Assembly: GCA_036259255.1 (NCBI GenBank) | Contig: DATACC010000271.1 | Location: 1-62,187 of the forward strand | Length of the DNA stretch: 62,187 nucleotides | Direction of reading: 5' to 3' | Origin: Thermoanaerobaculia bacterium | GTDB lineage: Bacteria > Acidobacteriota > Thermoanaerobaculia > Multivoradales > JBCCEF01 | In this document: positions 11,526 to 18,268 of the stretch, in pieces | How the letters are laid out: every line of letters starts with the position of its first letter | Numbering within the stretch: position 1 is the first letter of the stretch | Made by a program: the position numbers and the translations under genes | The notes under the pieces: model-generated | The model's input: only the letters and a program-made list of their open reading frames with translations | Told to the model about the DNA's origin: nothing | The model's database searches: none

Positions 11526-14500
11526 TCACTGCGGCGTCTCCTGGAGAACCCGGTCGGCCGACCCGACGGCGGGATCGGCGGCGGCATCGACCGCCGCGGA
11601 ATCGGCGACGCCGGAATCGGTGACGGCGGCGCCCTGACGCTGGGCCCGCTTGAGAGCCGCCAGGTTCTGCTGCTTGCGGCCCGCCCGGCGCGACTGCCGG
11701 GCCGCCGCCTCGGCGGCCCGCACCCCCTCCGCGAGTTCCGCCAGGCCGGCCTCCGGCCGCGCCACGGCGCCTTCCAGCACGGCGAGGAAGCCGTCGCGCA
11801 GCCGCTCGACGGTGGCGGGCTCGAACAGCTCGCGGCTGTAGAGCAGGGCGCCGCGCATGCCCCGTTCGCCATCGGACAGCGACAGGTGCAGGTCGTAGCG
11901 CACCACCTGGCGGCCGACCTCCAGCGGCTCCACCGCCAGCCCGGGCAGGCGCAACGCCGCCGCCGGCTCGTTGTGGACTTCGAGCTTGACCTGGAACAGC
12001 ACGGGGCGCGACGGATCGCGCTCCGGACGCAGCTCCTCGACGAGCTTGTCGAAGGGCACGTCCTGGTGGGCGTAGGCGCCGAGCGCGACCTCCCGCACGC
12101 GCTCGACGAGCTGGCGGAAGGAGAGGCCGCCGGACAGGTCGGTGCGCAGCACGAGCTGGTTGATGAAGAAGCCGATCAGCCCCTCGGTCTCCAGCCGGTT
12201 GCGGTTGGCGACGTTGGTTCCCACCACCAGGTCGTCTTGCCCGGTGACGGCGTGCAACAGCACCTGGAAGGCGGCGAGCAGCACCATGAACGGGGTCGCC
12301 CCCTCCCGACGGGCCAGCTCCCGGACGGCGGCGGCCAGCGCCTCCGGCAGCTCCACCGGCACCTTGCCCCCGGCGTCGCTGCGCACCGCCGGCCGCGGCC
12401 GGTCGGTGGGCAGCTCGAGCCCCGGCAGGCCGGCGAGCTGGCGGCGCCAGTGGTCGAGCTGGCGCTCCAGCACCTCGCCGGTGAGCCAGCGGCGCTGCCA
12501 GTGGGCGAAGTCCCCGTACTGCACCGGCAACTCCGGTAGCTCCGGGGCGCGGCCGGCGAGCAGCGCCTGGTAGTGGGCGGCGATCTCGCGCACCAGGATG
12601 GCCGTCGACCAGGCGTCGCTGACGATGTGGTGCATCGTGGTCAGCACCGCGTGCTCCCCGGGCTCGAGGCGCACCAGGGTCACCCGCAGCAGCGGCCCGG
12701 TGGCGAGATCGAAGGGTCGCCGCGCCTCGCCGCGGGCGAGGCCGTCGAGGGCGGCCGGGCGCCGTGCCGGCGGCAGGGCCCCCAGGTCGACCACCGGGTA
12801 GGCCGCCACCGCCGACGGCAGCACCCGCTGCACCGGAGCGCCGTCGACCAGCGGAAAGACCGTCCGAAGCACCTCGTGGCGCGCCACCACCCCGGCCGTG
12901 CTGCGCCACAGAATGCCGACGGAGAGCTCGCCGCGCAGGCGCAGCGCGAAGGCCACGTTGTAGGCCGCGCTGGCGGGCTCGAGCTGCTGCACGAACCACA
13001 AGCGCTGCTGGGCATGGGACAGCGGCAGCGGCTCGTCGCGCCCCACCGGCACGAGCGGCGGCTCGGCGTCGTTGGCCACCGCCGAGCCGGCCCGGCGCGC
13101 CGCCGTCACCGATTCCGCCAGGCCCTCCACCGTCGGCGTCCGGAAGAGGCTGCGCACCGGCAGGTCGACTCCGAAGGCCTGCCGCACCCGCGACATCACC
13201 TGGGTCGCCACCAGCGAATGGCCGCCGAGGTCGAAGAAGTCGGCGGTCACGCTGACCGCGTCGAGCTTCAAGACGTCGGCCCAGATCTGCGCCAGAGCCC
13301 GCTCGGTGGCGTCGCGCGGCGCCACGTGGACCGCCGACACCGGGCGTCGCGGCTCGAGCCGGGCCAGGGCGCGGCGGTCCACCTTGCCGTTGGGCGTGTG
13401 CGGCAGGGTTGCGAGGAGCTGCCAGGCGGCGGGCACCATGTGCTCCGGCAGGCGCTCGGCGAGGAACGCCTGGAGCTCGGCAAGGAGGCGGGCCGGGCCG
13501 GCATGGATCATCCCGGTGCCGTTGCCCTCACCCGCCGCGGCCCCCCCGGCCGAGCCGCTTCGGGCTGCCTCGCCGACCGGGCCGCCGACGGAAGCCGCCG
13601 CGGGGCGCACGGCGAACACGTTGCACAACCCGCCGCCCTCCACCGCCGTGTCGCGCTCCACCGTCACCTGGTAGCCGCGCTCGCCGAGCACCGCCACCAC
13701 CTCGGCCAGGTCGTCGGCAGCGGTCTCCAGCACGACCTGGTGGATGCGCGGCCAGTGCTCCTCGGCGATGCCGGCGAGGATCGCCAGCTCGCTCTTCTCG
13801 GCGTCGATCTTGAGCAGGTCGACGGCCTCGACACCGGCCTCGGCGATGATCTCGGAGACGGTGCGTACCGGGCAGGTGAACTGCTCGGTGGCGAGCCGCT
13901 CGTCGAGGACCTCCTCGAGCAGGTCGTCGTCGAGGCTCTCGCCGTCGCCGGCAGGCCGGCTGCGCTCGAAGGTGCGCACCAGCTCGCGGTCGCCGGCGGC
14001 GTCGACGAAACGCCCGGACATCAGCGACAGGTTCGGGTAGTAGGTGAAGCGCTCGCTGCTCGGCGCGCTGCCCAGGCCGCAGGCATGCACCCGGGCGTCG
14101 ATCCCGTGCAGCTCGGCGTTGAGGCGCAGCACGTCGCAGATCGGCGGGATCGGCTCGAAGGCGTGGATCACCGGGTCCTTGCAGCGGCTGGCGGCGAACA
14201 GGGTGAAGGCACCGACGTTCGCGCCGACGTCGAAGATGCAGGCGCCGTCGGGCAGCGCGACGCCGCCGCGCAGGTAGGAGCCCTGCTCGAAGATCTCCCG
14301 GTAGAGGAACTCGGTCTCGGCCCGCCGGTGCTGGGCGATGGTCATGCCGTTGGGCAGCTCGAACAGGGACGCCGGGTCGAGGCGGCCCTCCTGCTCGAGG
14401 CGCAGGGCGCGCAGCGCCGTCGGGGCCGCGTCGGCGGCGGGCACCACGAAAGCCGCGATCTGCGGGTTGGGCCCCTCGGCCTCGCGCACCACCACCGCCG

Positions 14501-17183: not shown

Positions 17184-18268
17184 CGCGCCGACCCGACCGT
17201 TTCCAGCCCGAGGCCCCGCGCCGCGGCGTCGGACTCCTCCCGCGAGCACGGCTCGGCCATGCCGACCACCACCAGCCGCTCGCCGGCGTAGGGCTGGCGG
17301 GCGTGGGCCACCGCCATGTTGTCGAGCATCAGCACGTCGCCCTCCTGCCAGGGAAAGACGATGGTCTCCTCCTGGTAGAGCCGGCGCAGATCGTCGAGAA
17401 CCTCCGCCTCGATGGGGGTACCGTCGCCGTAGTAGGTGTTGTAGGGCAGGTCCTCCTCCGGGAACTCGGCGAGCAGCGACTCGCGCACCTGGGGATCGAG
17501 GGTCGAGACGTGGAAGAAGGTGGCGTGGTTGAACCACGCCGGCTCGCCGGTGCGCGGATTGACCGCCACCGCGTCGCGGACCTGCCGGGTGCGCAGCCGG
17601 TCGCCGCCCTTCCACTCGGTCTCGATGCCCTTGTCGCGGCAGTAGCGGTCCACCTCCGCCGGGTCGTCGGTCTGGAAGGCGTTCTGCCAGCGCAGGCCGA
17701 AGCCGTCGTTGTAGTTGCGCACGTAGAGCACCTTGCGCTCGGCGAAGCGCTGGCGCACCGCCGGGTCCACCCGCTGGTAGATCCGGCAGGTGTCGGCGAT
17801 GGGCGTCTCGCCGCCGCGCTCCGGCGCCTTCAGGCAGCAGAAGTAGATCTTCAGCGGCCAGGTCACCCAGTAGGTACCCTCGTTGTGCAGGAAGATCCGC
17901 TGGTCCGACGGGTAGTCCGTGGAGGTGTACACCTGCTCGCCGACCTCGTGGCGAGGCGACGAGCGGTCCCGGTACTCGAGGCGTTCGCCGTCGGAGCTGG
18001 CCTCGACGAAGCCCTGGAACTCGTCCACGGTGCGCACGCCGAAGCCGCGAAACAGCAGCGCCCGGTGGGCGAGCAGCAGCTCGTCGACCTGGCGCCGGTT
18101 GCTGTGCGCCCAGGCGGCCAGGTCCATGCCCGGCACCGAGGGCTCCACCAGCACCGGCATGGGGCGGTCGGCCAGGAGCGGCCGTGTGCGCACCAGTGCC
18201 TCCTCCGACACGCTTACCGTCTTGCGCCGCAGGGCGCCGAAATCCTTCAGGCTCGGTAGGTTGTTCAT
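17180..18268 (-). CDS. Stand-alone TauD/TfdA-family Fe(II)/2-oxoglutarate dioxygenase (amino-acid beta-hydroxylase, SyrP-like)
   Basis: YTSTDYP...IFLHNEG...GGETP...WFNH...WQEGDVLMLDN...AHARQPY. AGGAG RBS before the ATG at 18268; alternative ATG at 18283 overlaps the upstream stop. Confidence 0.92.
   Translation of the reverse strand: MNNLPSLKDFGALRRKTVSVSEEALVRTRPLLADRPMPVLVEPSVPGMDLAAWAHSNRRQVDELLLAHRALLFRGFGVRTVDEFQGFVEASSDGERLEYRDRSSPRHEVGEQVYTSTDYPSDQRIFLHNEGTYWVTWPLKIYFCCLKAPERGGETPIADTCRIYQRVDPAVRQRFAERKVLYVRNYNDGFGLRWQNAFQTDDPAEVDRYCRDKGIETEWKGGDRLRTRQVRDAVAVNPRTGEPAWFNHATFFHVSTLDPQVRESLLAEFPEEDLPYNTYYGDGTPIEAEVLDDLRRLYQEETIVFPWQEGDVLMLDNMAVAHARQPYAGERLVVVGMAEPCSREESDAAARGLGLETVGSAR

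Follow-up and report, generated by a model that had tools for sequence, protein, structure and literature searches.

In the AMB pathway of Pseudomonas aeruginosa, which leads to methoxyvinylglycine, AmbC and AmbD hydroxylate glutamate on AmbE-T1, the methyltransferase (MT) of AmbE O-methylates the product, and the condensation (C) domain of AmbB then condenses it; the first 461 aa of AmbE itself make up a domain, 'Q', whose function is unknown. In cystobactamid biosynthesis, CysJ and CysQ make beta-methoxy-asparagine on CysH. MTs embedded in adenylation (A) domains include the type II M domains of Lundy et al. (2020), which are inserted between motifs a8 and a9 and carry a DVGx(N/H)xG motif and the boundary motif L(V/A/I)(A/G)(Y/F)xxxP. 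Their representatives KtzH and ColG (family 2a) are proven serine O-methyltransferases, and PuwH supplies the threonine position that is O-methyl-threonine in puwainaphycins A–E. Here, we analyze a nonribosomal peptide synthetase (NRPS) module with a histidine code that is encoded in a 62,187-nt stretch of DNA (hereafter, the window). The window is the whole of one contig (C271; DATACC010000271.1) from a metagenome-assembled genome (MAG; GCA_036259255.1) of a Thermoanaerobaculia bacterium (4.07 Mb in 364 contigs, ~80% complete). The module joins an interface-like domain, an A domain with an embedded FkbM-family MT, a peptidyl carrier protein (PCP), and a C domain, and its gene directly follows that of a free TauD-family oxygenase. 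We consider that it most likely (probability of about 0.6) yields beta-methoxy-histidine through AmbE-like hydroxylation and subsequent O-methylation on the carrier.

The locus resembles AmbB (A-T-C), AmbC/AmbD, and AmbE (Q-A-MT-T1-C2-T2-TE) in published layout. In both systems, an NRPS ending in a C domain is followed by one or more oxygenase genes and then by an NRPS composed of a ~450-aa non-catalytic domain, an A domain with an MT, a carrier (T) domain, and a C domain, and the C domain that ends the preceding glycine module of the window holds the same position as that of AmbB. The AMB system differs in its glutamate substrate, two oxygenases, methylation of the gamma (C4) hydroxyl, dehydration by AmbE-C2, and TE release, whereas the window has a histidine code, one oxygenase, only C-beta available for hydroxylation, and no T2 or TE, and its module is one step of a long polyketide synthase (PKS)/NRPS line. 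Cystobactamid biosynthesis (CysH, A-AMDH-PCP; CysJ, SyrP-like; CysQ) shares carrier-bound beta-hydroxylation by a TauD-family enzyme followed by O-methylation, but it uses a separate, AMDH-dependent MT and an asparagine substrate, and CysB shuttles the product to the main line.

Family 2a (KtzH and ColG; also PuwH) shares the a8/a9 insertion, the S-adenosylmethionine (SAM) motif, the boundary motif, and the FkbM Pfam family with the window MT. Its hosts, however, load serine or threonine with the hydroxyl already in place, whereas the histidine of the window would need one installed first, and the histidine-linked MTs carry clade-specific substitutions. A substrate parallel comes from the beta-hydroxy-histidine modules of siderophores (HcsF and HcsI of histicorrugatin, GlmG of glidomide), which match by code and layout, with an A-domain code one position away and a TauD beside a module headed by a non-catalytic ('dead') C domain; these modules have no MT and keep the free hydroxyl as a metal ligand. 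An earlier interpretation of the window made from its letters alone (hereafter, the sequence-only reading) had already proposed beta-methoxy-histidine from sequential beta-hydroxylation and O-methylation. This remains the best reading of the locus, but the logic is not without precedent: AmbE/AmbC/AmbD and CysH/CysJ/CysQ came before it, and what would be new is its retargeting to histidine. The same reading knew of no natural product containing this residue, and our literature search likewise found no paper naming methoxy-histidine.

Architecture of the histidine module

Pfam searches with the NRPS of the histidine module (Table 1) returned Condensation (two stretches), AMP-binding (aa 464–822), and Methyltransf_21/FkbM (aa 985–1172; E 8e-12, above the cut-off), and further AMP-binding_C, PP-binding (aa 1296–1357), and Condensation (aa 1386–1817). 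Because the A8 motif (GRGDEQVKIRGFRIELGEIE) lies at aa 864–883 and A9 (LPEHMVP) at aa 1245–1251, with A10 (NGKVDR) at aa 1265, the MT sits between A8 and A9. The boundaries of the insert were set by alignment to the histidine modules without an MT of two other clusters (L085 and L086); in such MT-less relatives, a loop of ~20 residues bridges A8 and A9. Both this placement (put by the sequence-only reading at about nt 13600–14400) and its claim of a free TauD gene coupled directly upstream were confirmed; the stop codon of the TauD gene shares an ATGA with the start codon of the NRPS gene, its TGA lying inside the NRPS ATG. The C domain of the module is 48–53% identical to five other C domains of the window and 42% identical to that of the first gene; given the former similarity, a dehydrating role like that of AmbE-C2 was unsupported. 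The whole arrangement recurs in two independent assemblies (L001 and L002) and is therefore not an assembly artefact.

Interface (I) domains are reportedly members of the condensation superfamily that lack the catalytic HHxxxDG motif and stand ahead of the A domain of the hydroxylated residue, the hydroxylase being either fused to them or encoded immediately upstream. The N-terminal domain of the histidine-module protein appears to fit this description in form and position. Its 440 aa gave weak matches to C-domain structures, which were nevertheless the best matches in the PDB, and include a Pfam Condensation stretch, with LPVLCGDA at the position of the catalytic motif. Five proteins of the window begin with the same type of domain, each opening in a variant of 'G-F-R/P-L-S-P-Q-Q'. 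All five lack both histidine residues, and they are 34–41% identical among themselves and 24–31% identical to true C domains (for the histidine module, 34–41% to the four other N-terminal domains and 26–29% to the true C domains of the window). As to placement, the TauD gene runs right up to the start of the NRPS gene, and the same was found in four other loci (L001–L004).

The iron ligands of the TauD protein (H-x-E...H) are intact (LHNEG, nt 17876–17890; VAHAR, nt 17297–17311), so that it is of the hydroxylase type and not a halogenase. Its ATG at nt 18268 lies eleven bases past the stop of the glycine-module gene and is preceded, at a distance of 4 nt, by an AAGGAG ribosome-binding site; use of an upstream in-frame ATG at nt 18283, which overlaps the preceding NRPS stop by ATGA, would give a protein of 367 aa. 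In L001, L002, and the P0124 locus (the last from its gene table only), this place is taken by orthologs with 75–82% identity. In L002, a gene for a 535-aa flavin monooxygenase (Pyr_redox_2/FMO-like; 8348–9955) stands between the TauD gene and the histidine module. TauDs with 63–65% identity directly precede X-A-PCP-C modules coded DSALIAEVW in the clusters of L085 and L086 (X, a C-like domain without the catalytic histidines), so that five loci in all, three from one cluster family plus these two, have a TauD before a histidine module.

In a tree of 18 TauDs labelled by their downstream A codes, the window TauD fell in a clade of six with 100/99 support. Five members of this clade are histidine-linked and one precedes a DATKIGEVG (Asn-like) module, and the clade is separate from the Asp-linked TauDs and from the two NRPS-fused TauD domains of the window. 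Conserved synteny and this tree support the suggestion of the sequence-only reading that the oxygenase is dedicated to the histidine module. We predict that it acts as the beta-hydroxylase of PCP-bound histidine, with C-beta as the only expected site because it is the sole sp3 carbon of the side chain. Histidine hydroxylases of this kind are said to form a family termed IBH_His, and the window TauD looks as a member of that family should.

The histidine code

Extraction against GrsA gave the Stachelhaus code D-S-A-L-V-A-E-V-W(-K), identical to that of the sequence-only reading. Position 278 reads L by gapless count and in most or large alignments; a single small alignment gives T. In a 2025 survey of 2051 A domains, the code DSALIAEVWK accounts for ten of the 14 histidine domains, namely seven His domains and the three beta-hydroxy-histidine domains GlmG, HcsF, and HcsI. 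The window code equals it at nine of ten positions (sole change, Ile299Val), and the orthologs P0004 and P0005 have exactly DSALIAEVW. Searching the literature for DSALVAEVWK itself gave no match and turned up the near-identical DSALIAEVWK instead. The published table therefore agrees with the earlier assignment of a histidine-type code, from which histidine is the predicted substrate of the A domain.

The embedded methyltransferase and its hosts

The insert matches the type II motifs, with FDVGANVG at aa 984–991, the boundary motif IAAFVVP at aa 909–915, and an acidic residue (FEP) that follows the second strand. Hosts of family 2a are Ser or Thr domains, whereas the window host has a histidine code; the survey of Lundy et al. 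(2020) makes no mention of Asp, Asn, Glu, or His hosts, nor of hydroxylases. Of the FkbM enzymes in MIBiG, 29 are O-methyltransferases and one is an N-methyltransferase, in line with the statement of the sequence-only reading that such enzymes are mostly O-methyltransferases; EreM is an FkbM enzyme proven to be an N-methyltransferase. An AlphaFold 2 (AF2) model of the MT (predicted local distance difference test score, 89) shows a class I fold. A PDB sequence search with the MT gave no match, and a fold search with the AF2 model returned generic class I methyltransferases only (template modelling score, ~0.4). The type II motifs support membership of the window MT in the side-chain O-methylating, KtzH/PuwH-type branch of type II domains, as far as can be judged from its sequence.

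A search with the insert alone showed that at least 294 NRPSs carry the same embedded domain, with PuwH as a named match. The host A code and upstream domain were extracted for the best 119 of these at least 294 proteins, and a scan of species-representative genomes added 80 further loci to four fetched earlier (~200 embedded copies overall). No interface-like domain was found upstream of the ~40 Thr-coded and ~30 Ser-coded hosts, which had an HHxxxDG C domain, another C-like domain, or none in view. In contrast, a dead-C domain preceded the Asp-coded hosts (10 hosts; 9 of the 9 with upstream sequence), the Asn-coded hosts (9 of 10), and all hosts with Glu-like (3) and His (5) codes. Of 24 Asp-, Asn-, Glu-, or His-coded hosts with upstream sequence among the protein matches, 23 begin with a dead-C domain. 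Sixteen loci (15 distinct) combine an interface-like host with the MT. Ten of these 16 (10 distinct) have a TauD gene no more than 150 nt upstream, and L002 is an eleventh, with the TauD gene inside 1.7 kb and the flavin monooxygenase gene in between, compared to 0 of ~55 loci with Ser or Thr hosts.

The survey also contained further kinds of host. Two interface-like modules with the Glu-like code DAKDLGxVD (P0008 and P0009) carry two tandem FkbM-type MTs in one A domain, and three hosts (P0040, P0045, and P0079) with an embedded FkbM MT have the Gly-type code DILQ[FL]GLIW. A second NRPS with an embedded FkbM MT was found in the same MAG as the window, on a 3.1-kb contig (G000:C60:1027-1608; L093); its host has the Gln-type code DAWQFGLID, and the E-V-H motif is intact.

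When 123 embedded FkbM domains were placed in a tree, the five His-linked domains formed one clade (Shimodaira–Hasegawa-like approximate likelihood ratio test [SH-aLRT], 99) nested among Ser-/Thr-linked domains including PuwH. The phylogeny called for by the sequence-only reading thus gives a well-defined histidine clade within the Ser/Thr-linked domains, on a backbone that is weakly supported. Hosts with installed hydroxyls do not form one clade in this tree. Constraint on the MT was judged by per-domain amino-acid identity and not by the ratio of nonsynonymous to synonymous substitutions, as the orthologs are ~65% identical and synonymous sites are saturated. The MT is 68% identical to its orthologs, compared to 62–69% for the A core, 65–69% for the C domain, and 53–55% for the interface-like domain. 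The MT, having diverged no further among orthologs than the A core and the C domain, is under constraint.

Natural variants of the module

The P0124 locus (JGI sample 3300041965, gene table) is syntenic with the window and has a TauD that is 81% identical to that of the window. Its gene order is a C-TauD end, radical SAM, X-A-PCP, C-A-PCP-C, TauD, and the histidine-module position, where the NRPS has 1542 aa and no Methyltransf_21 match, compared to 1885 aa in the window. Since this syntenic module lacks the insert, the MT is an add-on to an existing beta-hydroxy-histidine module, and congeners with free and with capped hydroxyl groups probably both exist in nature. In another locus (L042), an A core that is 54% identical to that of the window, with the code DSALIAEVW, carries an MT nearest to PuwH-like domains (55–59% identity) and less like the histidine clade (45–51%). 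Histidine A domains and type II MTs were therefore joined at least twice. A separate 252-aa class I MT gene (Methyltransf_11/12/23/25; 16973–17731) follows the MT-less TauD/X-A(His)-PCP-C-reductase module in L085, and may be an in-trans alternative for methylating a histidine-derived residue.

Proposed route and alternatives

In the route that we favor, the A domain would load L-histidine on the PCP, and the TauD, docked via the interface-like domain, would hydroxylate C-beta of the histidinyl thioester (His-S-PCP). The type II MT inside the A domain would then methylate the new beta-hydroxyl with SAM, the C domain ending the preceding glycine module would condense the chain onto the amine of beta-methoxy-histidine, and the module's own C domain would hand the chain to the next Asp module. 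For every one of these steps, a counterpart is known from a characterised system. Because the hydroxyls of serine and threonine are beta-hydroxyls, beta-hydroxy-histidine would offer the MT a Ser/Thr-type acceptor with a larger beta-substituent.

Several observations weigh against this route. The window MT departs from positions conserved at ≥90% in the family at three sites (N953R, I1121V, and the His of the E-V-H motif, which is Ala). This Ala is the only non-polar residue found at that position, and the four other members of the histidine clade have D or Q there. The clade also has the fixed changes H973G, A1060V, V1154T, Q1177R, T1184G, and Y1190F, with YLRHG turned into YLRGG. Such changes could reflect a different acceptor or weak activity, and no solved structure was close enough in the PDB sequence and fold searches to place the acceptor pocket or the catalytic base. 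A TauD is present with or without the MT in the histidine lineage, so their co-occurrence is uninformative on the acceptor. In the survey, no TauD is in view for five of the interface-like hosts (L069 and L072, which are Gln-like, L074, a duplicate of L072, L082 with the unassigned code DASQIALID, and L042, of His type). Three Asp/Asn-coded hosts (L056, L075, and L081) have a normal HHxxxDG C domain and no TauD in the fetched flanks; their MTs may form a carboxyl methyl ester, or the hydroxylase may be encoded elsewhere. Finally, the MAG is incomplete and the cluster itself an orphan.

The interface-like domain is a further point of this kind. Three of the five such domains in the window follow a TauD (fused or free), but those of two Asp modules (40469–47881 and 7978–11529; ~450 aa, LPxLxxD) have no TauD upstream, and the proteins preceding these modules end in a plain C domain. 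Either the free TauD serves several modules, or the domain acts generally as the partner of a C-terminal C domain at a junction and not as a dock for a hydroxylase. Hence, the presence of the domain alone does not predict hydroxylation; the I domain of the sequence-only reading holds in form and position, but is not by itself a mark of hydroxylation.

Among the alternatives, we regard as unlikely that the TauD hydroxylates C-beta and the MT then methylates an imidazole nitrogen, giving N-methyl-beta-hydroxy-histidine. The loss of the E-V-H His and the pocket changes H973G, T1184G, Q1177R, and Y1190F would fit a new acceptor that needs no general base, EreM provides a proven N-methylating FkbM enzyme, and the presence of the TauD independently of the MT leaves room for such a step. 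The E-V-H His is present in 69 of 69 Ser-/Thr-linked domains (strict code grouping) and in 96% of Asp-/Asn-/Glu-linked ones, and were this residue the general base, a clade without it would be less likely to O-methylate. It is, however, missing as well from P0027, whose host is Thr-like, from P0018, whose Asn host lies downstream of a fused TauD, from P0043/P0058, and from the independent histidine-type L042, which makes it dispensable in otherwise ordinary-looking O-methyltransferase lineages. We therefore downgraded this loss as evidence for N-methylation, since it is not tied to a change of chemistry. Moreover, every characterised embedded type II domain methylates oxygen, and glycine at 973 and 1184 would equally fit a larger pocket in which an imidazole replaces the methyl group of threonine. 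A retooled clade of MTs, which would either N-methylate the imidazole of beta-hydroxy-histidine or O-methylate with the imidazole of the substrate as base, seems doubtful to us, although sequence does not decide between O- and N-methylation.

It is rather improbable that the MT is inactive or skipped and that the module delivers plain beta-hydroxy-histidine, as in histicorrugatin. The Ala at the E-V-H position occurs in the window copy alone, a syntenic relative lacks the insert altogether, and the form of beta-hydroxy-histidine known to bind metals has its hydroxyl free, all of which count in favor of this reading. On the other hand, the SAM motif, the acidic residue after beta-2, KIDAEKSE, and the other family-invariant residues of the window MT are intact, and the identity between orthologs at the level of the A core and the C domain, together with fixed residues shared by five members, indicates selection and not decay. 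Very improbable is a third possibility, that the amino acid loaded by the A domain is not histidine, or that the TauD serves a neighboring module, such as the downstream Asp module, and the MT acts elsewhere: the code is a prediction with an alignment-dependent position 278, and two interface-like Asp modules of the window lack a TauD of their own, but the code is fixed at its nine other positions and agrees there with ten catalogued histidine domains, and the TauDs that directly precede histidine modules in five loci group together.

Gene line of the window

The window (G+C, ~75%) holds a hybrid PKS/NRPS line, identified by Pfam and A-domain codes, in 12 minus-strand genes (2–54972) with ATGA or GTGA overlaps as joints (from codon-position GC profiles and translation; Table 1). 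For the code DARGVSQMT, which belongs to the module between the two fused TauD domains, no matching substrate was found. The B12-binding radical SAM gene lies between the C-TauD end and an X-A(Asp)-PCP gene in the coupled operon, and the same place is kept in L001 and in the MT-less relative. As it is also kept in the latter, its role is independent of an O-methyl group, and a CysS-like extension of that group by the radical SAM enzyme was set aside.

Table 1. Genes of the window, with the domains of the histidine-module gene and the adjoining C domain. X, C-like domain without catalytic histidines; substrates in brackets are predictions from A-domain codes.
Feature	Position (nt)	Strand	Basis
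KS-AT-DH-KR-ACP-C	47878–54972	minus	Pfam
X-A(Asp)-PCP-Cy-A(Cys, Ox)-PCP	40469–47881	minus	Pfam, A codes
KS-AT-KR-ACP-C-TauD	33805–40476	minus	Pfam
X-A(DARGVSQMT)-PCP-C-TauD	28047–33797	minus	Pfam, A code
B12 radical SAM	26366–28015	minus	Pfam
X-A(Asp)-PCP	23052–26369	minus	Pfam, A code
C-A(Gly)-PCP-C	18280–23055	minus	Pfam, A code
C domain ending this Gly module	18382–19740	minus	Pfam; HHVIGDRWS
Free TauD, stand-alone Fe(II)/2-oxoglutarate oxygenase, 362 aa	17180–18268	minus	PF02668, E 2.5e-53
X-A(His, MT)-PCP-C, NRPS gene of the histidine module, 1885 aa	11526–17183	minus	Translation, Pfam, A code, ATGA overlap with TauD stop
Interface-like (Q/I-type) pseudo-condensation domain, aa 1–440	15864–17183	minus	LPVLCGDA (16761–16784) in place of HHxxxDG
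A domain, motifs A1–A8, code DSALVAEVW(K)	14409–15818	minus	PF00501, code extraction
Embedded FkbM-family (type II M domain) SAM MT, aa 936–1230	13494–14378	minus	PF05050, aa 985–1172; FDVGANVG, 14211–14234
C-terminal part of A domain (A9 LPEHMVP, A10 NGKVDR)	13329–13493	minus	Translation, motifs
PCP (LGGHSL, 13212–13229), predicted carrier for histidine tailoring	13113–13298	minus	PF00550, E 3e-18
C-terminal C domain (HHIVSDAWS)	11733–13028	minus	PF00668, best stretch aa 1386–1817
X-A(Asp)-PCP	7978–11529	minus	Pfam, A code
KS-AT-KR-ACP	3203–7981	minus	Pfam
C-A..., running off the contig	2–3202	minus	Pfam

Implications for NRPS modules with embedded methyltransferases

The survey points to a recurring, uncatalogued class of modules that combine a dead-C domain, an A domain with a type II MT, and a carrier, together with a TauD. 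The class spans Asp, Asn, Glu, and His codes in Acidobacteriota, Cyanobacteriota, Chloroflexota, and the MAG of the window, and such modules would give beta- or gamma-methoxy amino acids by the logic of AmbE. Genome-mining tools that read them as 'beta-OH-X' or as 'O-methyl-Ser/Thr' would mispredict the structures. If the favored route is correct, beta-methoxy-histidine would be a new non-proteinogenic building block; imidazole N-methylation, if true instead, would make this the first FkbM-type domain within an NRPS to N-methylate a side chain. Capping the hydroxyl of beta-hydroxy-histidine would remove a known metal ligand, and the relatives with and without the MT are a natural pair for probing the purpose of that hydroxyl.

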